Virus record (IMG/VR): IMGVR_UViG_2778261156_000003
Coordinates: 1 to 28,174 of that record
Origin: a virus
Lineage: Duplodnaviria; Heunggongvirae; Uroviricota; Caudoviricetes
Length of the DNA stretch: 28,174 bases
Direction: 5' to 3' (one strand)
In this document: positions 1,466-28,004 of the stretch, in pieces
How the letters are laid out: every line of letters starts with the position of its first letter
Numbering within the stretch: the first letter of the stretch is position 1
The notes under the pieces: model-generated
Told to the model about the DNA's origin: nothing
Databases searched by the model: none
What the model saw: only the letters and a program-made list of their open reading frames with translations
Position numbers and translations under genes: made by a program

Positions 1466-1466
1466 A

Positions 1467-2874: not shown

Positions 2875-2949
<75 letters not shown>

Positions 2950-2952
2950 ATA

Positions 2953-3028
<76 letters not shown>

Positions 3029-4384: not shown

Positions 4385-4406
4385 AAAAAACCTTCACTGC
4401 GGAAGG
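4385..4406 (-). terminator. Rho-independent terminator-like hairpin (minus strand) overlapping the 3' end of the small ORF
   Basis: CCTTC (4391-4395) / GAAGG (4402-4406) with loop ACTGCG. On the minus strand it is followed by a U-run (plus-strand A-run 4385-4390). Confidence 0.4.
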
Positions 4407-4591
4407 CGTCTGTAACAACCGAACTGATAATCTGCCAGACCCGCCATAACAAGCTGGGTCAGTATTAACTGGCAACGTTCGCGTGAAAGGTAAGTATTCT
4501 GCGCAATTTCCCCGACGGTCGCCGGTTCGGTGACGCTTAATTCATTAAACACCACTCTGGCAGTTTCGGTCATATCCTGCTGTTTTAGCAT
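4394..4591 (-). CDS. Hypothetical small protein (65 aa), possible winged-helix DNA-binding protein
   Basis: ATG at 4591-4589 preceded by AAGGGA RBS. Product MLKQQDMTETARVVFNELSVTEPATVGEIAQNTYLSRERCQLILTQLVMAG... The longer upstream extension in the ORF track has no RBS. Confidence 0.45.
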   Translation of the reverse strand: MLKQQDMTETARVVFNELSVTEPATVGEIAQNTYLSRERCQLILTQLVMAGLADYQFGCYRRLPQ

Positions 4592-4713
4592 GTCTTTTTC
4601 CCTTTTCTGGTTAACGTGACATACCAATAACTCTTGTCGAAACAGCCAGCAAGCTGAAAGACCAGTATTCGCAACCACCAGCGCGTTTAACGTACTTCGC
4701 CGATTTTCGGGCA

Positions 4714-4736
4714 CAAAAAAACCGCTCATCGGCGGG
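4714..4736 (-). terminator. Putative tR'-like terminator of a short late-promoter transcript (minus strand)
   Basis: Minus strand reads CCGC-CGATGA-GCGG followed by TTTTTTT. It lies about 40-60 nt downstream of a -10-like element (TATTAT) on the same strand, as expected for a Q-dependent PR'/tR' unit. Promoter assignment is inferred. Confidence 0.4.
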
Positions 4737-4846
4737 TTTAAGCTGTGTGGCGTAGTAACCACTCTTAACACGATATAATAATTTTTGCGTACGCGTTAGC
4801 GTTTTTGTATATTCAGCCTAATCCTATGTATTTATGGAAAAATAAG

Positions 4847-5971: not shown

Positions 5972-5992
5972 TCCAAGCTTGGGTTCGCACTC

Positions 5993-6325
5993 TTAAATCA
6001 TTCTCAAAACACCATCAATAAAACCTAAAGCAGTTTGCAATTCCTTTCTGATCGTACCGTCCGAGCATTTTCGCTTCTTTGCAATTGTACGGAGTGAAAT
6101 CCCGATAACAAAATGTGCGATTATCAGTTCATATTCTTCAGGCCTATATTTACGTAACCGAGCCACACAGCCGTCTATCATAATGCCTTCATCATCATCG
6201 CATTGGAGTCGTGACTTTTTACCATGTGGCAAAAGCCCCTTGAAGCCCGCTGCTATCGGTTGCCAATCGACACCACTATTTTCTGCTGCAGCCCATGCCC
6301 CCCAGCGGTCTAAAACCTCATACAT
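5993..6325 (-). CDS. Late-gene antitermination protein Q (QuuD-like small Q family)
   Basis: Product MYEVLDRWGAWAAAENSGVDWQPIAAGFKGLLP...CDDDEGIMIDGCVARL... resembles small lambdoid Q proteins. ATG 6325-6323 is coupled to the rusA stop (TGATATG). Confidence 0.8.
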   Translation of the reverse strand: MYEVLDRWGAWAAAENSGVDWQPIAAGFKGLLPHGKKSRLQCDDDEGIMIDGCVARLRKYRPEEYELIIAHFVIGISLRTIAKKRKCSDGTIRKELQTALGFIDGVLRMI

Positions 6326-6326
6326 A

Positions 6327-6698
6327 TCACGCCCCATTACTATCACCTCTAATTTCGCAAATCTTCACGCCCAGCCGACCACCAGGAACGAGCTTACCGC
6401 GCACAATATTGATTTCATCAAACTGCTCGTCGTCTATGAGAAGCCCCGCATGCGTCAGTGCATCCAGCGGTGCTTTCAGGATATTGTCCAGGTCCCGACG
6501 GCGCTTATCCGGCGGCTCTGCAGTAATTTTTATTGCCAGCCTTCCGGACAGGTTTAATTTCAGCCGCTGCTGGCGGACAATAAGTGCCACATCCCGGCGA
6601 TAACGCTCACCGGCTTTTGATACAAAATATGTGCTGCCACGACGACGCCAGTAGGTGTTCACCGTCGGCGGGTAAGGCAAAACAAACTCTATACGCAT
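6327..6698 (-). CDS. rusA: Holliday-junction resolvase RusA
   Basis: Product MRIEFVLPYPPTVNTYWRRRG...DKRRRDLDNILKAPLDALTHAGLLIDDEQ... carries RusA hallmark motifs. RBS AAGAGG precedes ATG 6698. Confidence 0.9.
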   Translation of the reverse strand: MRIEFVLPYPPTVNTYWRRRGSTYFVSKAGERYRRDVALIVRQQRLKLNLSGRLAIKITAEPPDKRRRDLDNILKAPLDALTHAGLLIDDEQFDEINIVRGKLVPGGRLGVKICEIRGDSNGA

Positions 6699-6710
6699 CA
6701 GTAACCTCTT

Positions 6711-7688
6711 TTACCCGAGCACGCCGGTTGCAAAGGCGCGATCAAGAAAACGAAAAATTAAATCAATCTGGGAACCATGCTTTTCTTCAAATGCCAGCGG
6801 ATCAGCATGAAGTTCGTTGTGATGCTCCCGGCACAACGGTAGCGTGAAAATATCGTGAGATTTTGTCCCCATTCCGCCCTGACCATGACCAATCAGGTGA
6901 TGGGGATCGTCGGCTGGCTTACCACAACACGCACACGGCTGTGTCTTCACCCAGCGTGTGTATTTCTCGTTAACCCAGCGGCGACGTTTAGGTCGTTTCA
7001 TGAAAGATTCCGGAGACTCCGGATCAACGGCAATGCTGACCACCGTCTTTTCCTGTGGCGGTTTTTGTTGCTGGTGGGCGTGAAGTGGTAGCACAATATT
7101 TTTTGTGCGCTGCTTCAGTATGCTGGTGGCAGTCTGCTCTCCCGGCATGATGTCGCTTTCGCGGTACACAGAGCGAATTTTTTCCGCACGCAACCCCAGA
7201 GAACGACGTAATACTGCCTCCGGAAGCGCGTCCGCTACCTGATTGCAGACCGACCACCAGGATAATTCAGCCAGCGATAATTCCCGTTCCTGCGTGCCAT
7301 TCATTGCATGGCGTATGACGTCAATCATCCATGCTGACAGGTTTTGATGAGCAAGTTGCCCGAGTGATTCGGATGTCTGGTCACGCAACTGGTTGTCGCA
7401 GTGCCAGCACAACACCATCGCGCCGGTACCGTAACGATGTATGACGATTTCACTGTGATGATAGTCACCATGAGGCCACTGGCAGGATTTGACATGACGC
7501 AACAGCCAGTCAGACAGTGCCCCAGCGCCGCCAGCAGCACGAATCACCCGCTCATCGCTGAAAAATGGCAGTAATGATTTATCCTCCGCCAGCGGCTGGC
7601 GAACGGCAGGGACGACTCCGGACGGCAGACCGCGCATGCTTTTCGGTTCAGGCTCCACCAGCACTCGAGGGTTATGAAATACTTGCAT
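6711..7688 (-). CDS. DUF968/YdfU-like lambdoid protein with C-terminal HNH-like zinc-binding motif
   Basis: C-terminus has CACCGKPADDPHHLIGHGQGGMGTKSHDIFTLPLCREHHNELH (HNH-like). Start chosen at internal ATG 7688 (MQVFHNPRVLVEPEP...) to avoid a 71-nt overlap with the upstream gene; the true start could be 7832. Confidence 0.7.
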   Translation of the reverse strand: MQVFHNPRVLVEPEPKSMRGLPSGVVPAVRQPLAEDKSLLPFFSDERVIRAAGGAGALSDWLLRHVKSCQWPHGDYHHSEIVIHRYGTGAMVLCWHCDNQLRDQTSESLGQLAHQNLSAWMIDVIRHAMNGTQERELSLAELSWWSVCNQVADALPEAVLRRSLGLRAEKIRSVYRESDIMPGEQTATSILKQRTKNIVLPLHAHQQQKPPQEKTVVSIAVDPESPESFMKRPKRRRWVNEKYTRWVKTQPCACCGKPADDPHHLIGHGQGGMGTKSHDIFTLPLCREHHNELHADPLAFEEKHGSQIDLIFRFLDRAFATGVLG

Positions 7689-7761
7689 GGATTCACGGCC
7701 CGGCCTAAGGACCACCAGCCCGAGTTCCGGTACCAGAACAGGTCGAAGTAATATCCGCACG

Positions 7762-8040
7762 TTACCTCCAGATCCGTTGCTGGTATGTGCGGGATGGGCG
7801 CGGTGGGCGTTCGGAATAAGGGAGCCTGACATAGATTATCCAGTGACGATAATCGAGGCTGAGGGCTTTCTTAATCTCGTATCCGCGTCTGCGATAGTTA
7901 TGAATTAGCCATTCGGCCTGTTCTTCAGTACATGGGTCATGCTGGAACCAGTCAGATTTGAAAGTGCGGGAACGCCGCCCGTGCCTGCTGGCAAAGACGG
8001 CAGAATCATCAGAATTGTGTAATTTGGTATCGTGCGCCAT
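7762..8040 (-). CDS. Hypothetical lambdoid nin-region protein (92 aa)
   Basis: ATG at 8040-8038 directly downstream of a minus-strand terminator. Product MAHDTKLHNSDDSAVFASRHGRRSRTFKSDWFQHDPCTEEQAEWLIHNYRRRGYEIKK... has no recognised family. Confidence 0.5.
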   Translation of the reverse strand: MAHDTKLHNSDDSAVFASRHGRRSRTFKSDWFQHDPCTEEQAEWLIHNYRRRGYEIKKALSLDYRHWIIYVRLPYSERPPRPSRTYQQRIWR

Positions 8041-8112
8041 CGGTTGTCTCTGCTGGCGCAGCAGGTGCCAGTTGTTCAGGCTGGCGTGCGAATTGTAAAC
8101 CAGAATGCCAGG

Positions 8113-8137
8113 AAAAAACAAAACCCGCCGAAGCGGG
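8113..8137 (-). terminator. Rho-independent terminator (minus strand) downstream of the lipoprotein moron
   Basis: Stem CCCGC (8124-8128) / GCGGG (8133-8137) with a CGAA loop. On the minus strand it is followed by a U-rich run (plus-strand A-run 8113-8123). A degenerate copy of the same motif sits at 8783-8803. Confidence 0.5.
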
Positions 8138-8336
8138 TATGCTAAAACAAACTGAAAGTAATATACCGGACTTGTAAAGGAACGATAGAATAATTATTGG
8201 ATTAAACCCTGACTCAATCCAGATTTCATAGGCAACAACTACGGACTAATCATCACAGTCATGTTTGATAGACTTAGTCCACATTGGGTGAGGGTTTACG
8301 GCGTTTTCACTAATAATTTATCGTCCAAGCTATACA

Positions 8337-8729
8337 CTACTGCCCTGTTTTAACGAAGTTTTTAAAGGAAACAACTGCCTGATAGGGGTTTGGTTGACAG
8401 CCAAACATATTATCGCAAAAAGGCTTGATGAAAATTCTTGAGGATCCATCTTCATTTGGCATTTTACTCACTTGATAAGCGAGGAATGGACTATTTGGAG
8501 AGGGATTATAAGTGGAAATTAGCGTGTCTGTCGCCGTTTGAATTTTCCATGAGGAATTATTAGCCAACCAGAATTGCGCTCGTTTCCAATAAAAGTCACA
8601 TTGCTTTTCATCATTACATGTTAGTGGCTTCATTGCTTCTGCTTTCAACGCTGGATCGATCTTTGCTGCACACCCTCCCAACATTACTGTTGCAATCATT
8701 ACACCTGCGACTAAAACAAGTTTCTTCAT
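8337..8729 (-). CDS. AT-rich moron: secreted lipoprotein (130 aa; lipobox LGGC; four Cys in mature part), function unknown
   Basis: Product MKKLVLVAGVMIATVMLGGCAAK... is a classic lipoprotein signal peptide. Strong RBS AGGGAG precedes ATG 8729. Low GC. Flanked by terminator-like repeats. Confidence 0.75.
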   Translation of the reverse strand: MKKLVLVAGVMIATVMLGGCAAKIDPALKAEAMKPLTCNDEKQCDFYWKRAQFWLANNSSWKIQTATDTLISTYNPSPNSPFLAYQVSKMPNEDGSSRIFIKPFCDNMFGCQPNPYQAVVSFKNFVKTGQ

Positions 8730-8872
8730 CTCCCTGCCCCATCAATAAAAGTTCGGTTCTCTAATAACTAGAGTTAATCAACGGAAAAAACGCCGAAGCG
8801 GGTTAAGTGCGGGTGCGTTGAGGATGCCTGACACATCAGAGGTGGCGAGGGATTTCTCCCCCGCCAGGTCTC

Positions 8873-9028
8873 TTACTCCTCAGGTTCGTAAGCTGTGAAG
8901 ACAGCGACCTCCGTCTGGCCGGTTCGGATTCGTACCTCGCAGAGGTCTTTCCTCGTTACCAGTGCCGTCACAATGACGGTTAAACAGATGACGATCAGGG
9001 CGATTAACATCGCCTTTTGCTGCTTCAT
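8873..9028 (-). CDS. hokD: Hok/Gef-family type I toxin (HokD/RelF-like)
   Basis: Product MKQQKAMLIALIVICLTVIVTALVTRKDLCEVRIRTGQTEVAVFTAYEPEE matches HokD/RelF as recalled. An in-frame upstream ATG at 9085 could give a mok-like extension. Confidence 0.85.
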   Translation of the reverse strand: MKQQKAMLIALIVICLTVIVTALVTRKDLCEVRIRTGQTEVAVFTAYEPEE

Positions 9029-9264
9029 AGCCTGCTTCTCCTTGCCTTTCGGCACGTAAGAGGCTAACCTAGATTTGCCGTTCATAGATTGAGCCTCAGA
9101 TTAATGTTAAGCGTCTTGCAGGACGCGTAATGTTAACTGGGGCTTTTCTCTATCTGCCTTTGGTGTTCATGCCTGAGACAGATAGCCTCAAGCACCCGCA
9201 GCCATTCTACTTAACTCCCGTTACCTCGCCAATATAAAATCAATCAGAAAGGTGATCCATAAAA

Positions 9265-9951
9265 TCACTCCTTCTCTTCTTTTCCGTAGTGGAGTTGGCC
9301 AATTTTGATAAGAGGGCGTCCCTGAGATTTGCGGTGTAGATTGGTATCGCGCAGAGAATACACACAGCCACAATATTCCTGCTGATAGAATTTTTCGCGC
9401 TTGCTGATTTCAATCATACGGGACGAGCCGCCCTGCTTGCGCCAGTTATAATCCCAGTACACCATACCCGGATAATGCGCAACAGCTCGCCGCCCACACT
9501 CGTTAACCTGCTGCATATTTTTCCAGCGTGAAATGCCCAGTGAACTGCTGATCACACTGAAACCATTTTCAGCAGCGTACAACGCTGTCCGCTCAAAACG
9601 CATGTCAAAACACATGGTACAACGGATCCCCCTCTCAGGCTCCCATTCCATTCCTTTGGCACGTTCAAACCAGTTGTCGGTGTCGTAATCAGCATCGATA
9701 AACGGCACGCCGTGTTGTTCAGCAAAGCGAATATTTTCATCCTTACGAATTAAATACTCTTTCTGAGGATGAATGTTCGGGTTGTAGAAAAAGATGGTGT
9801 AGTCGATTCCCGAGGCCTGAAGCGCCTCCATCACTTCACCGGAACATGGAGCACAGCAAGAGTGCAGTAGTAGTTTGTTTGCCCCGTTTGGGAGCTCCAA
9901 TTTAGGCCGTTTGAAATCAGCAATAGTCATAAATATTTTTATTGGGGTCAT
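9265..9951 (-). CDS. DUF208 protein, epoxyqueuosine reductase QueH-like
   Basis: N-terminal [14 protein letters not shown] motif plus downstream conserved Cys ([17 protein letters not shown]) are characteristic of the QueH/DUF208 family as recalled. Confidence 0.65.
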
Positions 9952-10104
9952 GAAAATAGCACAGAGTGTAGCATCAGAGCAGGTCTATCGGGAATATATG
10001 TCTAAATCTGGTAATATCTGGTTTTGACGCAAAGCGGACAACCACGCTGGCTCTACCCTGCGCCATGAAAATGTCAATTCACATCTGAACTAATGCTCTT
10101 TAAT

Positions 10105-10530
10105 CTAGTAACGTCTAAAATACCTAACATTTCCTTGATAAAATGCCAGTACACGCTGCATAGCTTCGCTCTTCCGGCACTCGCGACAGATTATATTCAG
10201 GCGCCTGTCGTAGCGGCGTATTTCGCCGTCTGGTAACGACCAGATAAGGTCCGGATCAACCACTGCAGGTTTCTTCACCTTTGCCCTTGAGAGTTTTTTG
10301 CGAGCATTTTGCCAGTCCTTACGCGCCTGTTCAGACGGGAATAACCCGTAACCAGAGTTGTATACATCGCCACTGGCAACCAGCTCTCTGGCGAGAACAC
10401 TCATCAGATATCTTGTCGCACCTGTCCTGGCTTCCAGTTGCCGCAACGTCTCGCGACCGCTCAGACGTACAAGTTCAACAACCTGCCCTTTAATTTTTTC
10501 CCGCTCTTCTTGTGTAAATACTTTTGCCAT
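10105..10530 (-). CDS. Hypothetical lambdoid nin-region protein (141 aa), possible DNA-binding protein
   Basis: ATG at 10530 with GGAGG RBS. Product MAKVFTQEEREKIKGQVVELVRLSGRETLRQLEARTGATRYLMSVLAREL...CRECRK... Confidence 0.6.
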   Translation of the reverse strand: MAKVFTQEEREKIKGQVVELVRLSGRETLRQLEARTGATRYLMSVLARELVASGDVYNSGYGLFPSEQARKDWQNARKKLSRAKVKKPAVVDPDLIWSLPDGEIRRYDRRLNIICRECRKSEAMQRVLAFYQGNVRYFRRY

Positions 10531-10545
10531 AAGCGCCTCCGGCAA

Positions 10546-11316
10546 TCACTTTTCCGATACAACACGGCGGGAAGAATCAGTAATCTGTCGAACAATATCC
10601 CGGTGCTTGTTCAGCTCCCGCAGCGCGGCGCAGACTCGCTCCCACTTCTGAACATCACTTTTCGCCCTGCGCAGCGCCAGGTTTGCCCTGCGAAGGGACG
10701 GAAAAATCAGCTCATCTGCTTGCGTTTCGGTAAACGATGGCAACGGCTGCACAATGTCCGCCACAGTTTCTGTTTTAATTTCTTCCTGTGTTGCGGCTTC
10801 CCGGACTGGTAACGCAGCACCTGCTGGCTGAGGAAAGGCCTTACCATCACTTTCCGTTACCAGCGCGGCTTTCGGCTCTGCTGGTAAATTATCGCCCGGC
10901 ATGCAGTAACGAAATTTACCGTTCTGATTAACGCGTGCCAGCCGCCCCGTTGCGGTTACCACCGCCAGCGTGGAAGCAACCTTGCGAGTACTGACACCGA
11001 ACTTACCCGCCAGTTCCTCACACGTTTTAGCCCCATCCTGACCGATAAACTCAATCATCATGTCTGCGGTAACTTTTTGTTCGACCTCCCCGGTCAGCAT
11101 ATCCTGTGCTTCAGATTTTACTGGCCGCTCTTCGGTTACCCGGGATTCACCTTCGCCAGCCAGAAACCAGGTGTGACCAGTTTTATCAACGACGCCTTTT
11201 CTTTTGAGTTCCCACAGCTCGTTGACAGCCTCTTCACGACTGATTCCAAGGCGAGCTGCCACCACATGTGAAGAGGCTTTTTTCAGTGCTTTCAGTGCGT
11301 CAGATACGGTTTCCAT
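10546..11316 (-). CDS. Phage protein with two winged-helix-like segments (DUF1627-like), function unknown
   Basis: Product METVSDALKALKKASSHVVAARLGISREEAVNELWELKRKGVV... with a second HTH-like segment EELAGKFGVSTRKVASTLAVVTATGRLARV. Family name is from memory and uncertain. Confidence 0.6.
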   Translation of the reverse strand: METVSDALKALKKASSHVVAARLGISREEAVNELWELKRKGVVDKTGHTWFLAGEGESRVTEERPVKSEAQDMLTGEVEQKVTADMMIEFIGQDGAKTCEELAGKFGVSTRKVASTLAVVTATGRLARVNQNGKFRYCMPGDNLPAEPKAALVTESDGKAFPQPAGAALPVREAATQEEIKTETVADIVQPLPSFTETQADELIFPSLRRANLALRRAKSDVQKWERVCAALRELNKHRDIVRQITDSSRRVVSEK

Positions 11317-11337
11317 TAAAATTTCCTCCGGACAAAA

Positions 11338-12084
11338 TTACTTCACAACCCTCATATTGCTGACATTTGGACGCCAGCTATCCCAGTTAAACGTCACCCA
11401 TCGACCACCGTTCATGGTCATGCGGTCCATAATCCTCTCACCAAGAAGCGTACTCATTGCGGCATGATTCAGGTTTGTTAACATCCCGACACTGCACAGT
11501 GATGCTGTCCGGCGATCAATTATCTGGTGCAATACCACCTGCTCGTTTTTCGTCTCCCGCTGAACGCCTATTTCATCCAGGACCAGCAAATCAACCCCGC
11601 AAAGCTCCTGTAAAAATTTTTCCCCGGATTTGCCGTTGTCGTAGCTGTCATGCAACACGCTCATGACGTCAGACACGGTGACGATAATCACGCTGCGCCC
11701 CTTCACCATCAGCCGGTTGCCCATCGCCGCTGCAAGGTGATTTTTCCCGGTGCCGGTTTTACCGCTGAACACAAAATTCGTGCACCCGGTCATCAGTTCG
11801 TCAGCTATGGATTTGGCCTGGCTCAGCGCGTATTTTTGCCCGTCGTTCTGCACCTGATAATTTGCAAACGAGCATTTGCTGTGCAGAGGCTGGATGCCCG
11901 AACGATTCAGGATTTTTTCCACCCGCAACTGGCGATTCTGGCGGTTAATCTCCTCGCTGCGTTTTCGTCCTTCAGCAAGTTGCCATTCCCGCCACTCCTC
12001 CACCGTCCGGTACGGTGGAACCGACCCCTGTGGTGCAAGTCTGCGAATACGTTCAAGAACCCCAACTGCCGCAATGTTTTTCAT
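11338..12084 (-). CDS. DnaC-like replication helicase loader (IstB-type AAA+ ATPase)
   Basis: Walker A motif FSGKTGTGKNHLAAAMG and Walker B LLVLDEIG. Lies downstream of the O-like initiator, as in lambdoid replication modules. Confidence 0.85.
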   Translation of the reverse strand: MKNIAAVGVLERIRRLAPQGSVPPYRTVEEWREWQLAEGRKRSEEINRQNRQLRVEKILNRSGIQPLHSKCSFANYQVQNDGQKYALSQAKSIADELMTGCTNFVFSGKTGTGKNHLAAAMGNRLMVKGRSVIIVTVSDVMSVLHDSYDNGKSGEKFLQELCGVDLLVLDEIGVQRETKNEQVVLHQIIDRRTASLCSVGMLTNLNHAAMSTLLGERIMDRMTMNGGRWVTFNWDSWRPNVSNMRVVK

Positions 12085-12090
12085 GACACG

Positions 12091-13053
12091 TCACCCCCTG
12101 AATCCCGGCGGTATTTCAGTGTCCGGTTCAGAAATGTGATTCACGCAACGCTGCGCAGGCGAACGCCCCAGGCGGATAACCAGTTCATCCCATTTTTCCC
12201 GGAGTTTTGCCGGACTCATGATGTTTTTTACCCAGAACGAATCCCGCTGGAGACGCCCAAACATTTCACAAATTTGTCTGTGAGTTCTGCCATCCAGCAT
12301 CCGCATTGTGCGAACGTCATTGGCCCATGCTGTCCAGTTGGGTTCTTTCGGTCTAGTGATCTCGCCATCATAGCTGGCCGCCTGCTCGTAAAGACTCACG
12401 ATTCGTCCCCAGATCCACTGTGCGCACACCAAATCTTCCTGACTTCCCCACTGGCGTTTTTTCGCACTGAACACAACCGCGTCAGGGTGTCGGGTTAAAA
12501 AATCCTGTTCAGCCGTCTGCGGGTCCGGTTGCGAAGCGTCCGGACAAGAAGATCTTTTATCTGACGGATCAGGTTTTAATACTGACGGATCGGGGTCAAT
12601 CATCGCCCCCCTAATCGGCAGTTTTTTATCAACAGTTGATCCATCAAAATTTGACGGGTCAACCGTTGAGGGGTCAATATTTGACGGGTCAACTGTTAAC
12701 GGGTCATTTTTTGCCGGGCTAATTTTTCTTTTCGGTTTATATGACTCACGCGCCGCCGCCGCAGCTGCTTCGAGTTTTTCCACATTAAGCCGATAGATAT
12801 TGCTTACATTACGCCCACCGACCTTACGCTCTTCCTTCGTCAGCCAGCCCTCTTTCGCCAGTTCTGCAATAGCCGATTTCACTGTGGATTCACTTCTTGC
12901 ACCGATCTGACGCCGGATAGTTTCAATGGCAGGCCATGACACGCCCTCGTCATTGCTGTAGTCTGCAAGACGGGCCATAACCGCCACCCTGGATAAGATC
13001 ATGCCGGTGAAGGCGCACCCTTCCCAGACAAGACCATGAAGCTTGCTGCTCAT
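12091..13053 (-). CDS. Replication initiator (lambda O-like), with iteron-encoded peptide repeats
   Basis: N-terminal winged-helix region (LHGLVWEGCAFTGMILSRVAVMARLADYSNDEGVSWPAIETIRRQIG...). Internal repeat DPLTVDPSNIDPSTVDPSNFDGSTVD is encoded by the iterons, as in lambda O. Start chosen at ATG 13053 (GGGGG RBS). Confidence 0.75.
   Translation of the reverse strand: MSSKLHGLVWEGCAFTGMILSRVAVMARLADYSNDEGVSWPAIETIRRQIGARSESTVKSAIAELAKEGWLTKEERKVGGRNVSNIYRLNVEKLEAAAAAARESYKPKRKISPAKNDPLTVDPSNIDPSTVDPSNFDGSTVDKKLPIRGAMIDPDPSVLKPDPSDKRSSCPDASQPDPQTAEQDFLTRHPDAVVFSAKKRQWGSQEDLVCAQWIWGRIVSLYEQAASYDGEITRPKEPNWTAWANDVRTMRMLDGRTHRQICEMFGRLQRDSFWVKNIMSPAKLREKWDELVIRLGRSPAQRCVNHISEPDTEIPPGFRG
12636..12707. 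repeat. Replication origin iterons: five palindromic 12-bp units at exact 15-bp spacing inside the O-like gene
   Basis: TTGATCCATCAA (12636), TTGACGGGTCAA (12651), TTGAGGGGTCAA (12666), TTGACGGGTCAA (12681), TTAACGGGTCAT (12696). Confidence 0.65.
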
Positions 13054-13075
13054 AAAACCCCCGAACACCGTGCTT

Positions 13076-13501
13076 TTAGTGCATCACCACAGCATTCCCT
13101 GCCGGGCCGCCGCGATTCATCTGGTCATACAAAACAACCGCTGACGCAACAAAATCATCGACATCCTTCACCAGCCGATCCCTCCGTTCGACGATCTCAC
13201 GGTAATATTCAGAACTGTGGCTGCGCATACGGGCCACCAGCAAAGGCGGCATCGCCTTTTCGATCGCCGGTAACAGAGCCTGCATTTTTTCAACAGCATC
13301 AGGGGTGTCTTTCTCTACCCAGCGGAAAATTTTCTGGGTATTGCGAGCCAGGGCTTCCGGATGGCTGTCGTCATACAGTTCTGGGAACGTCATACCCAAC
13401 TCAAAATAAGCCTGGGTTATTCCAGCTGCTGGAACTTTTTCGCCATCAGGACGCGCCCAGGCATTCATCGCCATGCGGATGTGTTCATGCTTGATTTTCA
13501 T
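13076..13501 (-). CDS. YdaT-like / CII-position regulatory protein (141 aa)
   Basis: AGGAG RBS precedes ATG 13501. Lies immediately downstream of the cro/YdaS-like gene (17-nt overlap) and upstream of the replication genes. Family assignment is from position and memory only. Confidence 0.5.
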   Translation of the reverse strand: MKIKHEHIRMAMNAWARPDGEKVPAAGITQAYFELGMTFPELYDDSHPEALARNTQKIFRWVEKDTPDAVEKMQALLPAIEKAMPPLLVARMRSHSSEYYREIVERRDRLVKDVDDFVASAVVLYDQMNRGGPAGNAVVMH

Positions 13502-13766
13502 GAATCAAGCTCCTAGAAAGTGGTTGTGTTAACGTTTTGGTATCTTCCAGCTCGGGCCAAATATTCATCCAATCAAAAGGCCTTAGTTGCTGACGTGTAA
13601 CTTCACCATTACTGGCTCGCTCAATAAGGACACATAACGATGCCCCTAACACTTGACCTTTACTCAATGCCTTTCTTAGATAACCGATGCTGGTACCACA
13701 CTCGCATGCAAACATACGCTGTTCATCTGACGAAAGAGAATTGAGAAATATTCTTAATTCTTCCAT
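13485..13766 (-). CDS. Cro-like HTH regulator (YdaS family)
   Basis: Product MEELRIFLNSLSSDEQRMFACECGTSIGYLRKALSKGQ... contains an HTH. Divergent from the CI-like gene across an operator-containing 100-bp region. Confidence 0.7.
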   Translation of the reverse strand: MEELRIFLNSLSSDEQRMFACECGTSIGYLRKALSKGQVLGASLCVLIERASNGEVTRQQLRPFDWMNIWPELEDTKTLTQPLSRSLIHENQA

Positions 13767-13795
13767 AGCTACTCCTTAGTAAACACAGCAAAGAA

Positions 13796-13839
13796 TACCC
13801 ACAGGTAAACAAAAGTCAATACCCACAGGTTGTTTACCT
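13796..13839. promoter_or_regulatory. OR-like operator region between the cro-like and CI-like genes
   Basis: TACCCACAGGTA (13796-13807) and TACCCACAGGTT (13820-13831), 24 bp apart, plus inverted arms AGGTAAACAA / TTGTTTACCT. A TATTAT -10-like element precedes the repressor ATG. Confidence 0.5.
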
Positions 13840-13866
13840 TGCGGTAATCGCATCTATTATTTACCT

Positions 13867-14286
13867 ATGGACAAATATGAATTTAGACGACAGCAACTCA
13901 TCAAAATTCGTGATGAGAAATGCGATGGTAAAGCGGTTAACGTGGCCAGAAAGATCGGGCGCGAGCCTTCTTATGTATCAAGAATGTTGTACCCAGAGGG
14001 GAAAAAGGGAAAAAAACGGATCGCTGATGATATGGTGGAGATTATCGAAGAGTCCTTTGGGTTACCCCGGGGATGGATGGATGGTATCGTTTCATCATCA
14101 ACGAACACAGCCTCCAGTTATGAAACAAGGGTTCTAACGCCACGACAACGTATTTTTTTAGATCTCTTAGACGAACTGCCAGAAAGTGAAGCGGATAAAT
14201 TATTAAAAACTCTTGAAGAGAAAAAACAGTATTACAATATGATCTACGAAGAAATCCGTAAAAAGAAAGCACAAAACGCATCATAG
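13867..14286 (+). CDS. CI-like prophage repressor (HTH, no peptidase domain)
   Basis: Product MDKYEFRRQQLIKIRDEKCDGKAVNVARKIGREPSYVSRML... has an N-terminal HTH. It is divergent from cro-like and bracketed by operator palindromes. Confidence 0.75.
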   Translation: MDKYEFRRQQLIKIRDEKCDGKAVNVARKIGREPSYVSRMLYPEGKKGKKRIADDMVEIIEESFGLPRGWMDGIVSSSTNTASSYETRVLTPRQRIFLDLLDELPESEADKLLKTLEEKKQYYNMIYEEIRKKKAQNAS

Positions 14287-14328
14287 CTCACCAAACAACT
14301 AGTCACCAGTTAAGACACCGCAAAAATT

Positions 14329-14365
14329 TACCCATGGGTATTTACTTTTTAAATACCTATGGGTA
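14329..14365. promoter_or_regulatory. OL-like operator pair upstream of the early-left operon
   Basis: Perfect palindrome TACCCATGGGTA (14329-14340) and TACCTATGGGTA (14354-14365), 25 bp apart. Same consensus as the sites at 13796 and 13820. Confidence 0.45.
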
Positions 14366-14551
14366 TCCTTCTTTTCATACCAACCCACCCCGCCCCACAG
14401 AATGCAGGGCAATACTTCGAGTTACCAGGCAGTGGTCAGGGGTTAAGTAGCCAGCCCGAGGCGTAAGAACATGACGGCAGGGTTCAACTTTAATAACTAT
14501 GCAGCAGGTTTTTGTTCCGCTACCCCGGCGTTAAGGGGAAATGAGGTCAAC

Positions 14552-14707
14552 ATGGATACTATCGATCTTGGCAACAACGAATCTCTGGTGTACGGCGTGT
14601 TTCCAAACCAGGACGGCACGTTCACCGCAATGACGTATACCAAAAGCAAAACGTTTAAAACCGAAAATGGTGCCCGTCGCTGGCTGGAAAGAAACTCAGG
14701 TGAGTGA
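14552..14707 (+). CDS. ydfA: YdfA-like small protein (DUF1391), early-left operon
   Basis: Product MDTIDLGNNESLVYGVFPNQDGTFTAMTYTKSKTFKTENGARRWLERNSGE matches Qin YdfA as recalled. GAGG RBS. Confidence 0.8.
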   Translation: MDTIDLGNNESLVYGVFPNQDGTFTAMTYTKSKTFKTENGARRWLERNSGE

Positions 14708-14708
14708 T

Positions 14709-14837
14709 ATGGATTTCGACACAATCATGGAAAAGGCTTACGAAGAATACTTCGAAGGCCTTGCCGAAGGCGAAGAAGCTCTCAGCTTCAGTGAGTTTAA
14801 ACAGGCGCTTTCCAGTTCGGCAAAATCTAACGGCTGA
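14709..14837 (+). CDS. ydfB: YdfB-like small protein (42 aa)
   Basis: Product MDFDTIMEKAYEEYFEGLAEGEEALSFSEFKQALSSSAKSNG. Start is 1 nt after the ydfA stop. Confidence 0.8.
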   Translation: MDFDTIMEKAYEEYFEGLAEGEEALSFSEFKQALSSSAKSNG

Positions 14838-14866
14838 TAAGCGAAACAGCACCGCGAGGAATCAGT

Positions 14867-15085
14867 ATGCAGAAACGAGAACCCGTCATCATCGCGCCAG
14901 ACTATACCGATGATGAACTTTATGAGTGGATGCGCCAGAAAATTAATGCAGCGCAGGATCTGAAATGGGCTAATGAAGCCAGGGCTAAGCAGGCTGAAAA
15001 TCTGTCCGCTCTGGAGCAGGATATCACCAATCTGGAAAAAGCAGCGGCATTAAGCATTGCCAGAATGATTACATACCCGCGTTAG
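14867..15085 (+). CDS. ydfC: YdfC-like protein (72 aa)
   Basis: Product MQKREPVIIAPDYTDDELYEWMRQKINAAQDLKWANEARAKQAENLSALEQDITNLEKAAALSIARMITYPR. Confidence 0.85.
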   Translation: MQKREPVIIAPDYTDDELYEWMRQKINAAQDLKWANEARAKQAENLSALEQDITNLEKAAALSIARMITYPR

Positions 15086-15425
15086 TAGCTAATCAACAAA
15101 GCTAAGGTTAGTAATTAAGGAGTTCTCCACGGGTGAGGTGGAGTGCGTGCGCCGGACACGGGTGCGCATCCGGAACTGACAGTTTACTGAAAGGATATTT
15201 CCCTGAAAAGTCAGACCATAACGCGAAAGCGCACGGCGAGGTAGCTGGTTCATAGATAGCCTGTCGTTAAATTATCGTCGACCGTGCGCTTCCGGTTGTG
15301 GCACTCCGCGAAATGGCGCGGCGGTAAGTATGGCGGGGTTATTCCTTCACCGTTGAGGACACCGGGTTGTCAGGTTGACCATACGCTTAAGTGACAACCC
15401 CGCTGCAACGCCCTCTGTTATCAAT

Positions 15426-15478
15426 TTTCTGGTGACGTTTGGCGGTATCAGTTTTACTCCGTGACTGCTCTGCCGCCA
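15426..15478 (+). ncRNA. dicF: DicF small regulatory RNA (ftsZ-inhibiting sRNA processed from the early-left transcript)
   Basis: TTTCTGGTGACGTTTGGCGGTATCAGTTTTACTCCGTGACTGCTCTGCCGCC followed by ATTTTT matches DicF as recalled. It lies between ydfC and dicB, as in Qin. Confidence 0.85.
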
Positions 15479-15652
15479 TTTTTAAAGTGAATTTTGTGAT
15501 GCGGTGAATGCGGCTAAGCGCACGCGGAACAGTTAAAACCAAAAACAGTGTTATGGGTGGATTCTCTGTATCCGGCGTTAATTGTTAACTGGTTAACGTC
15601 ACCTGGAGGCACCAGGCACCGCATCACAAAACTCATTGTTGAGGGCGCGATA

Positions 15653-15841
15653 ATGAAAACGTTATTACCAAACGTTAATACGTCTGAAGGTTGTTTTGAA
15701 ATTGGTGTCACTATCAGTAATCCTGTATTTACTGAAGATGCCATTAACAAAAGAAAACACGAACGGGAGTTATTAAATAAAGTATGCATTGTTTCAATGC
15801 TGGCCCGTTTACGTCTGATGCCAAAAGGATGTGCACAATGA
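15653..15841 (+). CDS. dicB: Cell-division inhibitor DicB
   Basis: Product MKTLLPNVNTSEGCFEIGVTISNPVFTEDAINKRKHERELLNKVCIVSMLARLRLMPKGCAQ. Confidence 0.9.
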   Translation: MKTLLPNVNTSEGCFEIGVTISNPVFTEDAINKRKHERELLNKVCIVSMLARLRLMPKGCAQ

Positions 15842-16029
15842 ATCCAGTATTTGCACTTATTCTGACGGTTTTTCTTGTTTCCGGAGAGCCAGTTGATATT
15901 GCAGTCAGTGTTCACAGAACAATGCAGGAATGTATGGCAGCAGCAACCGAACAGAAAATTCCAGGCAACTGTTATCCGGTCGATAAAGTTATTCACCAGG
16001 ATAATAACGAAATCCCGGCAGGATTTTAA
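15838..16029 (+). CDS. ydfD: YdfD-like small membrane lysis protein
   Basis: Product MNPVFALILTVFLVSGEPVDIAVSVHRTMQECMAAATEQKIPGNCYPVDKVIHQDNNEIPAGF. Its ATG overlaps the dicB stop (ATGA). Confidence 0.85.
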   Translation: MNPVFALILTVFLVSGEPVDIAVSVHRTMQECMAAATEQKIPGNCYPVDKVIHQDNNEIPAGF

Positions 16030-16122
16030 AACAGCACCGTAATAAATATCCAGTTTCATTCTTATATGTCAGCAATGGCAGAGATTTGTTCACCCTTAAA
16101 TCTGTGATGAGGTTTACCAATA

Positions 16123-18564
16123 ATGAGCACTGATAAAGAAGAATTTGCACTATATTGCGAAGCAAAAAATGACAAAGTAAGAAAACGCCTAGGAATTAAA
16201 GGTGGTTTTTACTGGACTACAGCAAAAAAATTATCTGTTGCAATCTCCCGCTGCATTACCGCAATGGATGACAACGATTATGATGAAGACGACTTTAAAA
16301 AACCCGTCCGCGTCAATTTGCCCGTTGTTGACGACCTTCCGCCAGAAGGCGTGTTTGATACTGAATTCTGCAACCGCTATGAAAAAGGCGGGAAAGATGG
16401 CATCACAATGACATTTATCGGCCCTTCCCCCTCTGTTCAGGACAAACCAGCCAGCACTGACAATACCAACATCAACGGCGAAGACATGACTGAGATTGAG
16501 GAGAGCATGCTTCTGCCTGTCTCCGGTCAGGAACTGCCCATTCGTTGGCTTGCTCAACACGGCAGCGAAAAACCAGTAACGCACGTTTCACGCGACGAAC
16601 TCCAGGCATTACACATTGCACGGGCTGAAGAACTACCGGCTGTTACTGCCCTGGCTATTTCGCATAAAACCAGTCTGCTCGACTCGCTGGAGATTCGCGA
16701 CCTCCACAAACTGGTTCGTGACACTGACAAAGTTTTCCCTAATCCTGGTAATTCAGACCTGGGACTAATAACTGCTTTTTTCGAAGCATACCTGGACGCT
16801 GACTACACTGATCGGGGTCTGCTGACAAAAGAGTGGATGAAAGGAAATCGTGTTTCACGCATCACCCACACGGCTTCCGGTGCTAATGCTGGCGGTGGGA
16901 ACAAAACCGATCGCAATCCGAATTTAGTACACACCCTCGACACACTGGATGTGGAGATTGCAGCAGCCACACTTCCGATGGATTTTAATATTTATGAAAT
17001 TCCGGGCAGCGTTTATCGTCGCGCAAAAGAAGTAGTCCTGAACAAAGAAAGTCCGTTCAAAGAATGGTCCGCAGCACTTCGTGCAACCCCGGGTATTCTG
17101 GACTATTCCCGCGCCGCTATTTTTGCACTTATCCGAAGCGCACACCCTGAATTTTATCACTACCCGGGACGCCTTCAGGGGTATATCAACGCCTATTTGA
17201 CGGAAACTGATCACGAGAACCCCAGCAAGGAAACTCTCACAACTGCCCGGCATACGCCGGAAAAAGATATCCTGGAAGAAATTTACCGCGAGGTGGTTAC
17301 TGAGCGTGAAACAGAAGAAGAAAAACCACAACCATCTGACGCAATGGCAGGTGAACAGGCAACAACTGAAACAATGGAACCGGATACAACTGAACATGGC
17401 CAGAACGCGCAGTCGCTGGATGCTCAGTCGCAGGTGAGTTCCGCTAACCAAGTAAAAGTCACCGCTGACGAAGTAAACAAAATTATGCAGGCAGCCAATA
17501 TCAGCCAGCCTGACGCCGATAAGTTACTTGCTGTATCGCGTGGTGAATTTGTTGAGGGGATTAGCGACCCTAATGATCCGAAATGGGTCAAGGGGATCCA
17601 GACTCGCGATTCTGTGAACCAGAACCAGCATGAATCGGAACGGAACAACCAAAAAGCGGAACAAAACAGCCCAAATGCGTTACAAAACGAGCCAGAAACG
17701 AAACAATCCGAACCAGTAGCGCAACAGGAACCGGAAAAAGTCTGCACCGCCTGCGGTCAGAGCGGTGGCGGCAACTGCCCTGATTGTGGCGCGGTGATGG
17801 GCGACGCAACATACCAGGAAACATTCGATGAAGAGAATCAGGTTGAAGTTCAGGAAAATGATCCGGAGGAAATGGAAGGCGCTGAACATCCACACAAGGA
17901 GAACCCTGGCGGCAATCAGCATCACGCCAGCGATAATAAAACTGGCGAGGCGACAGATCCCTTAATTAAGGTGAATGGTCATCATAAGCTCACATCCACC
18001 AGCAGAGCGGGGATTCATCTGATGATCGACCTTGAAACCATGGGAAAAAATCCCGATGCCCCGATTATCTCAATAGGCGCAATATTTTTCGATCCACAAA
18101 CCGGAGATATGGGACCGGAATTTAGCAAGACCATCGATCTGGATACTGCTGGCGGAGTCATTGATCGTGACGTCATTAAATGGTGGCTAAAGCAATCACG
18201 TGAAGCGCAGTCTGCCATTATGACCGATGAAATCCCGTTAGATGATGCACTACTGCAATTGCGGGAATTTATCGACGAAAACTCCGGTGAATTTTTTGTT
18301 CAGGTCTGGGGTAATGGGGCCAACTTCGACAACGTGATTTTACGCCGTTCATACGAACGACAGGGTATCCCCTGCCCGTGGCGCTACTGCAACGATCGCG
18401 ATGTACGCACAATCGTTGAGCTGGGGAAAGCCATAGACTTCGATGCCAGAACTGCTATCCCATTCGAAGGTGAGCGCCATAATGCACTTGATGACGCTCG
18501 TTACCAGGCAAAATACGTTTCAGCTATCTGGCAAAAACTGATCCCGAGTCAGGCTGATTTTTAA
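16123..18564 (+). CDS. Large early-left protein (813 aa): long acidic N-terminal region with zinc ribbon, C-terminal DnaQ-like DEDDh 3'-5' exonuclease domain (YdfE/RecE-N-terminal-like)
   Basis: C-terminus carries Exo I (MIDLETMG), Exo II (VWGNGANFDNVIL) and Exo III (HNALDDARYQAKY) motifs. A zinc ribbon CTACGQSGGGNCPDCG is present. N-terminal segments (e.g. NGEDMTEIEESMLLPVSGQELPIRWLAQHGSEKPVTHVSRD) resemble the N-terminal region of RecE/YdfE as recalled. GAGG RBS. Confidence 0.8.
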   Translation: MSTDKEEFALYCEAKNDKVRKRLGIKGGFYWTTAKKLSVAISRCITAMDDNDYDEDDFKKPVRVNLPVVDDLPPEGVFDTEFCNRYEKGGKDGITMTFIGPSPSVQDKPASTDNTNINGEDMTEIEESMLLPVSGQELPIRWLAQHGSEKPVTHVSRDELQALHIARAEELPAVTALAISHKTSLLDSLEIRDLHKLVRDTDKVFPNPGNSDLGLITAFFEAYLDADYTDRGLLTKEWMKGNRVSRITHTASGANAGGGNKTDRNPNLVHTLDTLDVEIAAATLPMDFNIYEIPGSVYRRAKEVVLNKESPFKEWSAALRATPGILDYSRAAIFALIRSAHPEFYHYPGRLQGYINAYLTETDHENPSKETLTTARHTPEKDILEEIYREVVTERETEEEKPQPSDAMAGEQATTETMEPDTTEHGQNAQSLDAQSQVSSANQVKVTADEVNKIMQAANISQPDADKLLAVSRGEFVEGISDPNDPKWVKGIQTRDSVNQNQHESERNNQKAEQNSPNALQNEPETKQSEPVAQQEPEKVCTACGQSGGGNCPDCGAVMGDATYQETFDEENQVEVQENDPEEMEGAEHPHKENPGGNQHHASDNKTGEATDPLIKVNGHHKLTSTSRAGIHLMIDLETMGKNPDAPIISIGAIFFDPQTGDMGPEFSKTIDLDTAGGVIDRDVIKWWLKQSREAQSAIMTDEIPLDDALLQLREFIDENSGEFFVQVWGNGANFDNVILRRSYERQGIPCPWRYCNDRDVRTIVELGKAIDFDARTAIPFEGERHNALDDARYQAKYVSAIWQKLIPSQADF

Positions 18565-18622
18565 TGTTCAACCCTAATTGCCGCTAACCGTATATAGTTA
18601 GCGGCGGTTATGAGATATAGCT

Positions 18623-18826
18623 ATGAGCAGCTTATTTTTAACCGAAGATGAATTGCTAATATTAACGGGCTGCAAATATGCAAGCCACCAGCGAAAATGG
18701 CTAATGGAAAACGGGCTTCCGTTCTATACCAATCGTAGTGGCAAACCGATTGTCAGCCGGGATCTATTTACCTGCAATAAAACTTTACCACCACGCGAGG
18801 TAGAGCCGAATTTTGGTGCGATCTGA
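18623..18826 (+). CDS. Excisionase-like protein (Xis/DUF4224-like)
   Basis: 67-aa product MSSLFLTEDELLILTGCKYASHQRKWLMENGLPFYTNRSGKPIVSRDLF... lies immediately upstream of the integrase, overlapping it by 1 nt (ATGA). Confidence 0.7.
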   Translation: MSSLFLTEDELLILTGCKYASHQRKWLMENGLPFYTNRSGKPIVSRDLFTCNKTLPPREVEPNFGAI

Positions 18827-19851
18827 TGGGAAGACGAAGGAAAAATCCTGAACACGAAAAATTACCTCCAAATGTATACCCAAATAAATATAGTTATGTA
18901 TGGAAACCAACATCCAGAGAATCTGTCACACTAACCGCCATCAAGGATGGTTTAGCTGCTTTATGGAAAAAGTATGAGGAAACTGTAAATAATCGCGATC
19001 GTGCAATGACATTCGGTCGCTTGTGGGAAAAATTCCTCGCCAGCGCCTATTACAGTGACCTTAGTCCAAGAACACAAAAAGATTATCTGCAACATCAAAA
19101 AAAGTTGCTTGCCGTATTCGGTAAGGTACCAGCGGATTCCATAAAACCAGAACACATCCGTCGATACATGGACAAAAGAGGGGAGCAGAGTAAAACGCAA
19201 GCCAACCATGAAAAAAGCAGTATGTCCCGTGTTTACAGTTGGGGGTATGAGCGAGGGTACGTGAAGGCTAACCCATGTGCAGGTGTAAGTAAATTCAAGG
19301 CCAAAAACCGCGAACGATATGTAACCGACAAAGAATACCAGGCAGTATTAAGCGTTGCACCTCTTCCTGTTTTTATCGCAATGGAAATTGCCTATCTGTG
19401 TGCAGCGAGGGTTTCCGATGTGTTATCGCTGAAATGGGAACAGATTGGAAACGACGGGATATTCATCCAGCAAGGGAAAACCGGAAAAAAACAGATAAAA
19501 GCATGGAGCCCACGATTACAGGCAGCGATCGAAAAAGCAAAACAGTTACCAAAATCTGCCTATGTGATCAGCAATCAATACGGCAACCGATATATGTACA
19601 AAGGCTTTAACGAAATGTGGGTAGATGCAAGAAATCGTGCTGGAAAAATTTCAGGTATTTTAACCGACTTCACCTTTCATGATCTGAAGGCGAAAGGAAT
19701 TTCAGACTATGAAGGAAGCAGCCGGGATAAGCAACTTTTCTCTGGTCACAAAACCGAAGGGCAAGTGCTAATCTATGACAGGAAGGTTAAAGTTTCACCA
19801 ACACTTGATGTCCCGTTACCTGAAAATATTCCAAGAAAATATTCCAAGTAA
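18826..19851 (+). CDS. int: Tyrosine-type phage integrase
   Basis: 341-aa product with an ARVSDVLSLKW box and C-terminal HDLK...GHKTEGQVLIYDR catalytic region. Adjacent to the tRNA-Ser 3' end. Confidence 0.9.
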   Translation: MGRRRKNPEHEKLPPNVYPNKYSYVWKPTSRESVTLTAIKDGLAALWKKYEETVNNRDRAMTFGRLWEKFLASAYYSDLSPRTQKDYLQHQKKLLAVFGKVPADSIKPEHIRRYMDKRGEQSKTQANHEKSSMSRVYSWGYERGYVKANPCAGVSKFKAKNRERYVTDKEYQAVLSVAPLPVFIAMEIAYLCAARVSDVLSLKWEQIGNDGIFIQQGKTGKKQIKAWSPRLQAAIEKAKQLPKSAYVISNQYGNRYMYKGFNEMWVDARNRAGKISGILTDFTFHDLKAKGISDYEGSSRDKQLFSGHKTEGQVLIYDRKVKVSPTLDVPLPENIPRKYSK

Positions 19852-19903
19852 TTCCAAGTGTGATTTTTGTCACTGACTTAATGATGTGTAAGTGATTGAA
19901 TTT

Positions 19904-19993
19904 TGGCGGAGAGAGGGGGATTTGAACCCCCGGTGGAGTTGCCCCCACTCCGGTTTTCGAGACCGGTCCGTTCAGCCGCTCCGGCATCTCTCC
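19904..19993 (-). tRNA. serU: tRNA-Ser (anticodon CGA); prophage integration target
   Basis: Reverse complement GGAGAGATGCCGGAGCGGCTGAACGGACCGGTCTCGAAAACCGGAGTGGGGGCAACTCCACCGGGGGTTCAAATCCCCCTCTCTCCGCCA. Long variable arm and anticodon loop CTCGAAA. Confidence 0.9.

Positions 19994-21373: not shown

Positions 21374-28000
<6,627 letters not shown>

Positions 28001-28004
<4 letters not shown>

Follow-up and report, generated by a model that had tools for sequence, protein, structure and literature searches.

The window analyzed here, a 28,174-nucleotide (nt) stretch that makes up positions 1 to 28,174 of the Caudoviricetes record IMGVR_UViG_2778261156_000003, includes the right portion of a lambdoid prophage inserted at tRNA-Ser(cga), adjoining mtfA. 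Within it lies a gene for an 813-amino-acid (aa) protein, in which a RecE-like N-terminal region, here called the scaffold, is joined to a 3'-5' exonuclease domain of the DEDDh type. The early-left genes run in the order cI-like repressor, ydfA/B/C, DicF, dicB, ydfD-like gene, 813-aa gene, xis and int. This agrees with the neighborhood described in an earlier reading of the same DNA (the original prediction), which placed the 813-aa gene beside dicF, dicB and ydfD and ahead of xis-int. The slot is the one that recE-recT occupies in Rac and exo-bet-gam in lambda. Judged from its sequence, the gene is a mosaic nuclease of the early-left operon, with a flexible linker between scaffold and DEDDh domain.

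The C-terminal domain is assigned to the Rv2179c/T4 DexA family of DEDDh exonucleases and is predicted to be catalytically intact. Residues 632-803 match PF16473, the Rv2179c-like 3'-5' exoribonuclease domain. The alignment spans positions 2-177 of the 177-position model and scores 222.9 bits (E 3e-66), where the Pfam gathering score is 27. The sole PDB sequence match of the 813-aa protein is T4 DexA (8KEL/8KEN, E 3e-5). An alignment with T4 DexA, an EcD-type protein (discussed below) and four stand-alone homologs shows that the catalytic residues D636, E638, D736, H786 and D791 are invariant. The three DnaQ-like motifs named in the original prediction are all found: DLETMG at aa 636-641 (nt 18028-18045), WGNGANFD at aa 729-736 (nt 18307-18330) and HNALDDARY at aa 786-794 (nt 18478-18504). 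Strong purifying selection on the DEDDh domain is indicated by its ratio of nonsynonymous to synonymous substitution rates (dN/dS), 0.11-0.13; for the scaffold, compared with RecE, the ratio is 0.3-0.4. One related locus (L010, positions 737-3127) carries an allele of the gene that is split into three open reading frames (ORFs), of 456, 157 and 183 aa; the 183-aa ORF is the DEDDh domain alone. Since the 183-aa product represents a cluster of 277 sequences, the DEDDh domain may also be made on its own.

The N-terminal part is clearly RecE-like, as originally proposed. It matches PF06630 (Exonuc_VIII, the enterobacterial exonuclease VIII N-terminal family) at aa 57-189 (E 3.4e-36), and in a BLASTP comparison with K-12 RecE, residues 58-615 align to RecE 50-591 with 58% identity over 565 aligned positions. 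Nothing aligned past RecE residue 591 in that comparison. RecE itself has the PD-(D/E)XK nuclease, RecE 564-866, that the original prediction named, detected as PF12684 at RecE aa 615-850, and this family gave no match in the Pfam scan of the 813-aa protein. Similarly, the NCBIfam RecE equivalog NF007259 scores 945 bits against a cut-off of 1269, i.e., below threshold, with an alignment confined to aa 1-616 and, in the model, to positions 1-603 of 877. Because both end points fall before the RecE nuclease domain, we place the exchange point near aa 615 (nt 17967), within the acidic linker. The domain swap put forward in the original prediction thus survives alignment to RecE: N-terminal similarity is present, it stops at RecE 591, and the C terminus is DEDDh instead of the canonical PD-(D/E)XK. 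In all, the C-terminal module has been genuinely replaced on a RecE scaffold. There is a finer mosaic relative to phage vB_EcoS-640R1, in which the first 400 codons are nearly identical and the DEDDh domain differs, with a proportion of synonymous differences (pS) of 0.21.

The 813-aa ORF is uninterrupted and begins with ATG, with a GAGG ~12 nt upstream of the start, and RefSeq coding sequences (CDSs) that are 99.8% identical to it are labeled "3'-5' exonuclease" or "exonuclease." An AlphaFold2 (AF2) model of aa 1-615, built from 65 sequences, is confident for aa 1-100 and aa 121-400, where the predicted local distance difference test score (pLDDT) is mostly >90. The best-conserved motifs of the family, TASGANAGGGNKTDR (aa 250-264) and LDYSRAAIF (aa 326-334), lie in the helical core. 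The linker segment that follows the core is conserved in RecE and Tritos and has pLDDT <50 at aa 403-445 and 492-535; the junction linker is also below 50, at aa 568-615. The CxxC...CxxC element noted originally is present in the protein, with a weak Pfam DZR match (E 0.11) and moderate pLDDT of about 65-70. The parts of the gene and its neighbors are listed in Table 1.

Table 1. Parts of the 813-aa gene, neighboring early-left features and Chi sites in the window
Feature	Position (nt)	Strand	Evidence
ORF in CI-like repressor position, head of leftward operon	13867..14286	+	ORF listing; gene position in related loci
DicF small RNA, same operon	15427..15478	+	Rfam RF00039, 73.4 bits
dicB, immediately upstream region	15653-15841	+	RefSeq annotation of 99.8%-identical locus L001
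ydfD-like DUF1482 gene, directly upstream	15838-16029	+	Pfam PF07358; RefSeq annotation of L001
Whole CDS, 813 aa, RecE N-terminal scaffold + DEDDh 3'-5' exonuclease	16123..18564	+	ORF listing; Pfam PF06630 + PF16473
N-terminal alpha/beta domain (aa 1-100)	16123..16422	+	
All-helical core domain (aa 121-400)	16483..17322	+	
Low-confidence acidic linkers (aa 401-447, 492-540) flanking two short helices (aa 448-472) and SDPNDPKW motif	17323..17742	+	AF2
CxxC-x8-CxxC zinc-ribbon-like element CTACGQSGGGNCPDCG (aa 541-556)	17743..17790	+	Read in sequence; conserved in RecE
Acidic linker with swap junction; RecE similarity ends at aa 615 (nt 17967)	17824..18015	+	BLASTP, NF007259
DEDDh 3'-5' exonuclease domain (aa 632-813)	18016..18561	+	PF16473; alignment with T4 DexA and stand-alone homologs
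Excisionase-like DUF4224 gene (xis), directly downstream	18623-18826	+	Pfam PF13986
Tyrosine integrase (int)	18826-19851	+	Pfam PF00589
tRNA-Ser(cga), prophage attachment site next to mtfA	19904..19993	-	ARAGORN; RefSeq context
Chi sites (+)	1806, 3544, 7070, 7122	+	
Chi sites (-)	2155, 4359, 4675, 7655, 7712, 13234, 17996, 18685	-	

The operon arrangement is not peculiar to this prophage. The order dicB-ydfD-nuclease-xis-int recurs in eight distinct chromosomal contexts and is retained across different attachment sites; it is also present, with different integrases, in the viable phages mEp460, vB_EcoS-640R1 and Tritos. In the repressor position, the window copy gave no Pfam match; the 139-aa gene in that position of related loci (L042) has HTH_3/HTH_31, and the Tritos counterpart is annotated "CI repressor." Scans around the 813-aa gene for a promoter or terminator of its own gave site counts no higher than in shuffled sequence, with no plus-strand promoter-like site upstream.

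The resemblance to the Qin fragment YdfE that the original prediction noted stood only in part. Neither BLASTP with K-12 YdfE nor tblastn against Qin found similarity to the 813-aa protein, and the direct resemblance falls away. An indirect one holds through phage Tritos: YdfE aa 1-256 is 99% identical to the N terminus of the Tritos 823-aa protein, which is nearly identical to the 813-aa protein from aa 444 to the end, DEDDh domain included. At the profile level, hhalign of the YdfE/Tritos-type N terminus against the RecE-type N terminus gave a probability of 73% (E 3e-5, 187 columns), which suggests remote homology between the two types. From ydfA to ydfD, the window and Qin share 97% identity at the DNA level; this similarity ends at ~16114, ~9 nt before the ATG of the 813-aa gene. 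Given the match of YdfE to the Tritos N terminus and the near-identity of the Tritos C terminus to ours, YdfE is the IS2-truncated remnant of a sister (Tritos-type) allele in the same slot. This explains the K-12 pseudogene ydfE.

The gene is abundant and already annotated, and its class has been described before, which makes it less novel than the original prediction assumed. At a coverage of at least 80%, the whole gene is found in 1242 of 5426 complete E. coli genomes. The DEDDh module alone is found in 4064 of these genomes (75%), at 8088 places, and is thus commoner than the Rac-type RecE nuclease module (1736 genomes, 32%). PHROGs places the gene in the families phrog_2082, phrog_20376 and phrog_14078. 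Most phage records name it "exodeoxyribonuclease VIII," and RefSeq often uses "3'-5' exoribonuclease." The former name is misleading, because the nuclease domain is another one. With chemistry predicted to be of opposite polarity to that of RecE, and without an annealase, a protein labeled "exodeoxyribonuclease VIII/RecE" can mislead mining for RecET recombineering systems and the inference of phage recombination capacity.

Our search of the published literature found nothing specific to the 813-aa protein, but several studies bear on its class. A survey of lambdoid Rec modules (PMC12315714, Genome Research 2025) distinguishes four types of nuclease, DnaQ-like 3'-5' nucleases among them, places DnaQ-type genes "very near int," and mentions "RecE-2" proteins without a nuclease domain. 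It also defines a "Tritos" class that has a nuclease, lacks an annealase, single-stranded DNA-binding protein (SSB) and anti-RecBCD protein, and is Chi-rich. T4 DexA has been solved and is a DNA exonuclease; the same study claims the E. coli DexA homolog EcD as an anti-T4 defense ("HREX") that recognizes DNA containing 5-hydroxymethylcytosine (5hmC) (PMC12153337, NAR 2025). Prophage ISG20-like DEDDh nucleases with auxiliary domains ("TONDOs") restrict the RNA phages MS2 and Qbeta (PMC13344964, bioRxiv 2026). For RecE itself, a review gives the N-terminal domain as having no known function, and the nuclease domain is a tetramer (PMC11611040).

The lack of a RecT partner, which the original prediction had seen beside this gene, proved to be systematic. 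We surveyed 80 IMG/VR loci encoding relatives, with flanks of up to 10 kb, by tblastn with RecT, Bet and Erf. The DEDDh module is present in 73 of the 80 loci, 70 of which also have dicB, and 62 of 71 DEDDh loci keep the fused ORF intact, uninterrupted and no shorter than 780 aa. The 73 DEDDh loci yielded no RecT, Bet, Erf, lambda Exo, Gam or Abc2, in a search that left out the Sak, Sak4 and UvsX types; RecT was found in 3 of the 6 loci of the RecE PD-(D/E)XK type in the same set. Pfam scans detected no annealase domain among the prophage ORFs of the window, and none was found in the eight genomic contexts. Chi (GCTGGTGG) occurs 12 times in the ~20 kb of prophage inside the window (1-19900), which is part of the prophage, where ~0.2 sites per strand would be expected from base composition. 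Chi is thus abundant and biased, with 8 of the 12 sites on the strand corresponding to the lambda top strand and 4 on the other. A nuclease is present, and annealase, anti-RecBCD protein and SSB (the last sought by Pfam scans of the listed ORFs only) were not found. The window prophage fits the Chi-rich lambdoid class without anti-RecBCD that the Rec module survey outlines (PMC12315714).

How is the scaffold used elsewhere? The scaffold family is narrow, with 268 matches among 1.84 billion cluster representatives. A larger search for N-terminal homologs was saturated by 99%-identical sequences, and architectures were instead counted among representatives of 50%-identity clusters of at least 450 aa (n = 80). 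The RecE nuclease forms the C terminus of 21 of these and the DEDDh domain that of 15; the other 44 have neither. On the 44, Pfam found PF06630, one RecT and one DUF3799, and nothing else. Their tails include two conserved families, of 11 and 14 representatives, with no Pfam or PDB sequence match. The 14-member family is phrog_26058 (unknown function in PHROGs) and ends in a conserved ...DDLPxMAxxLAxxV..QE motif; its members are P0353, P0366, P0371, P0383, P0384, P0393, P0416, P0420, P0421, P0424, P0430, P0436, P0438 and P0458. These may be the nuclease-less "RecE-2" proteins mentioned in PMC12315714. In one 703-aa protein, P0322, the RecE scaffold (aa 3-550) is joined directly to a RecT-like segment (phrog_148, aa 528-701); a natural deletion may have removed the nuclease domain, or the fusion may stem from gene calling. 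We also considered the class-3 tail as a Rad52/Sak-like annealase, from a motif similarity (KKSLTDAxKKALSxLGF); this was not confirmed, and Foldseek gave no match at E <0.2.

The scaffold is tied to recombination enzymes, since other proteins join it to the RecE nuclease and one, P0322, to a RecT-like segment. It is tempting to go further and regard the RecE N-terminal region as a portable targeting platform of enterobacterial prophages with interchangeable C-terminal effectors, instead of a dispensable appendage, and the DEDDh chimera as a self-sufficient, scaffold-targeted 3'-end processor. We consider this possible but rather doubtful. If true, the specificity of the DEDDh chimera would reside in the scaffold, which would explain why full-length RecE behaves unlike its nuclease domain and would give a handle on the scaffold's binding target. 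The existence of several alternative C-terminal modules on one scaffold makes the RecE N-terminal region experimentally approachable through module swaps.

What, then, might the 813-aa protein do for the phage? We tentatively favor, at a little under an even chance, a DNA-end-processing nuclease that serves host RecBCD/RecA-dependent phage recombination and replication. Upon induction or infection, pL would drive transcription of the gene. The scaffold would bring the enzyme to where RecE acts, presumably double-stranded DNA ends or recombination intermediates, and the DEDDh domain would trim 3' ends at those sites. The nuclease would then serve recombination and replication that depend on host RecBCD, Chi and RecA, rather than work as one half of a RecET-type machine for single-strand annealing. 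It is the lack of an annealase and of an anti-RecBCD protein, in a Chi-rich phage, that makes the host pathway the most likely one to be served. ExoI and RecJ are said, in work by Razavy et al. from 1996, to contribute to Chi-stimulated lambda recombination. The gene would be a concrete candidate for how annealase-less, Chi-rich lambdoid phages exploit host RecBCD.

Several points weigh against this proposal. The authors of the Rec module survey state that 3'-5' DNA exonucleases usually inhibit recombination, and that int-adjacent DnaQ-type genes often lie outside canonical Rec modules, with other roles possible (PMC12315714). EcD, a stand-alone homolog that is 37% identical to the domain, has been reported to act in anti-T4 defense (PMC12153337). 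The substrate could also be RNA, as PF16473 is named for an exoribonuclease. Finally, we found no informative fold relative of the scaffold, and the idea that it targets DNA ends comes solely from its association with RecE.

The report on EcD raises the alternative that the 813-aa protein is an exclusion or defense nuclease, whose DEDDh domain degrades the modified DNA of superinfecting phages and benefits the lysogen, not the phage's own replication. This is unlikely in our estimate, despite a reported precedent: plasmid-borne EcD is reported to protect E. coli from T4, to cut T4 DNA and to spare unmodified double-stranded DNA (PMC12153337), and the EcD family shares both a Pfam family and 37% identity with the DEDDh domain. 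Prophage genes near int are often cargo (morons), and the same prophages bear variable defense cargo elsewhere (RES, Lit and a Cap4-like nuclease). However, the 813-aa gene sits at the distal end of a repressor-controlled pL operon with no promoter-like site of its own in our scan, and EcD-type genes themselves lie in the early region of P2-like phages, not in a defense island. For these comparisons we traced the EcD family through the forward primer (ATGATTGACACCGAAAC) and A78 to a 189-aa protein and used EcD-type proteins; the exact EcD sequence, HAK9828821.1, was not among the cluster members listed, and the reverse-primer 23-mer had no match in IMG/VR. One EcD-type gene, at 5681-6248 (-) of locus L035, lies in a P2-like prophage early region, where its neighbors are Cox, integrase, DUF4754, DUF4761, a ParE-like toxin, Dam methylase and DUF4406. 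By a residue test, the specific HREX mechanism does not transfer to the 813-aa protein: the proposed 5hmC-recognition residues of DexA are not conserved, with W152 replaced by C756 and D169 by K769 (the D169 region is in a loop, where the alignment is less certain), and D708 keeps DexA D90, the tetramer-forming Asp whose loss defines the "dimer-only" state of EcD. The only PADLOC-DB 2.0 match is a weak one to a generic Cas-associated DEDDh model (E 1.3e-4, 20.7 bits), and the HREX claim comes from a single over-expression study.

An RNA substrate would make the protein a 3'-5' exoribonuclease. It would act during takeover by trimming or degrading RNAs of the host or the phage, be it in mRNA turnover, in nucleotide salvage or in the maturation of operon RNAs such as DicF, or it would restrict RNA phages. 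Its Pfam family was defined around the M. tuberculosis exoribonuclease Rv2179c, RefSeq often names it accordingly, and it shares an operon with DicF, which we read as co-transcription with a processed small RNA. Still, T4 DexA, the closest solved relative, is a DNA exonuclease, and the scaffold is common to DNA recombination enzymes. Prophage DEDDh TONDOs do defend against MS2 and Qbeta (PMC13344964), but they are ISG20-like exonucleases, and the 813-aa protein is not among them, since the TONDO candidates are ISG20 homologs of <500 aa. We think it somewhat less probable that the enzyme is directed at RNA than at the DNA of competing phages. We would give little credence to a counter-defense enzyme that removes nucleic-acid parts or 3'-OH intermediates of host immunity, such as retron msDNA, primed spacer intermediates or linear oligonucleotide signals. 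Early expression beside the host-takeover genes dicF, dicB and ydfD and 3'-5' exonuclease chemistry are circumstantial points in its favor; there is no similarity to described anti-defense families in the libraries used, and the substrates of DEDDh enzymes are linear 3' ends, whereas cyclic signals are not attacked. It is very improbable that the gene is a functionless relic of illegitimate or homologous prophage exchange, passively carried. It is indeed a pronounced mosaic (its N-terminal two-thirds hardly differ from 640R1, whereas the C-terminal domain has the pS given above), and split or truncated alleles exist, as in L010 and in K-12 ydfE, cut by IS2. Yet dN/dS is low in both nuclease domain and scaffold, the catalytic residues are invariant, the ORF is intact in most loci of the survey, three-quarters of complete E. 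coli genomes have the DEDDh module, and the gene is carried by the viable phages Tritos, mEp460 and vB_Eco isolates.

The window holds other features of note. A slot between hokD/sok and a DUF977 gene is a variable cargo site (9265-9951 (-), with equivalents in L001 and L041-L048). It contains QueH (epoxyqueuosine reductase) in this window, and in sister prophages RES-domain and Lit protease genes, a LysR regulator, a 932-aa Cap4-nuclease/AAA/SEC-C protein, or an insertion sequence. At 4805-5971 (+), a 388-aa ORF with a TTG start and no Pfam match lies on the strand opposite to its neighbors. GC content is at its minimum for the window there (0.37 at 5001-6000), and the ORF may be cargo of foreign origin. 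Two phage-borne tRNA genes, tRNA-Gly(tcc) and tRNA-Thr(tgt), are located upstream of the lysis genes (2875-3028 (-)) and adjoin an N6/N4 DNA methylase gene (3197-4243 (-)); the sister prophage L001 has four tRNAs there. Outside the prophage, after tRNA-Asn, a 2147-aa ORF (21561-28004 (+)) reads through without a break; its counterpart in strain PF9285, an invasin/Ig-like inverse autotransporter, is a pseudogene.

Known systems can be compared with the 813-aa protein by scaffold and by nuclease domain. On the scaffold side, Rac RecE shares the zinc ribbon and acidic linkers, and recE the early-left operon slot upstream of xis-int; RecE has a C-terminal PD-(D/E)XK 5'-3' nuclease and a recT partner, whereas the 813-aa gene has neither, and a DEDDh domain instead. 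K-12 YdfE (Qin pseudogene b1577) occupies the same slot directly after dicB-ydfD, but IS2 cuts it short and it lacks a nuclease domain. The Tritos 823-aa "exonuclease VIII," with relatives in mEp460 and PPompW, has an identical operon layout (cI, ydfABC, DicF, dicB, ydfD, nuclease, xis, int); it differs in its first ~250 residues, which are of the other (YdfE) sequence type, and its residues 270-440 are about 30-40% identical to the 813-aa protein. On the nuclease side, T4 DexA has the Pfam-level family and the DEDDh catalytic set in common with the 813-aa protein, but it is a stand-alone protein of 227 aa with extra loops and 24% identity, and its residues W152, D169 and S87 are not conserved in the 813-aa protein. 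Rv2179c of M. tuberculosis, the founding member of PF16473, belongs to the same family by profile score and was not recovered by phmmer of the 813-aa protein against PDB sequences; it differs in its reported substrate, RNA, and in having no phage context. EcD is likewise a PF16473-type DEDDh exonuclease of a temperate phage, 37% identical to aa 634-806, but it stands alone at about 189 aa in a P2-like early region, and the EcD type has W at the DexA W152 position, E at D169 and A78 at D90, where the 813-aa protein has C756, K769 and D708. Enterobacterial prophages also have stand-alone DEDDh exonucleases near int (e.g., Salmonella P0116, 189 aa), whose identity to the C-terminal domain is 59-90%. 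These are without the RecE scaffold of the 813-aa protein, but their genes sit, as the 813-aa gene does, last among the early-left genes before xis-int.

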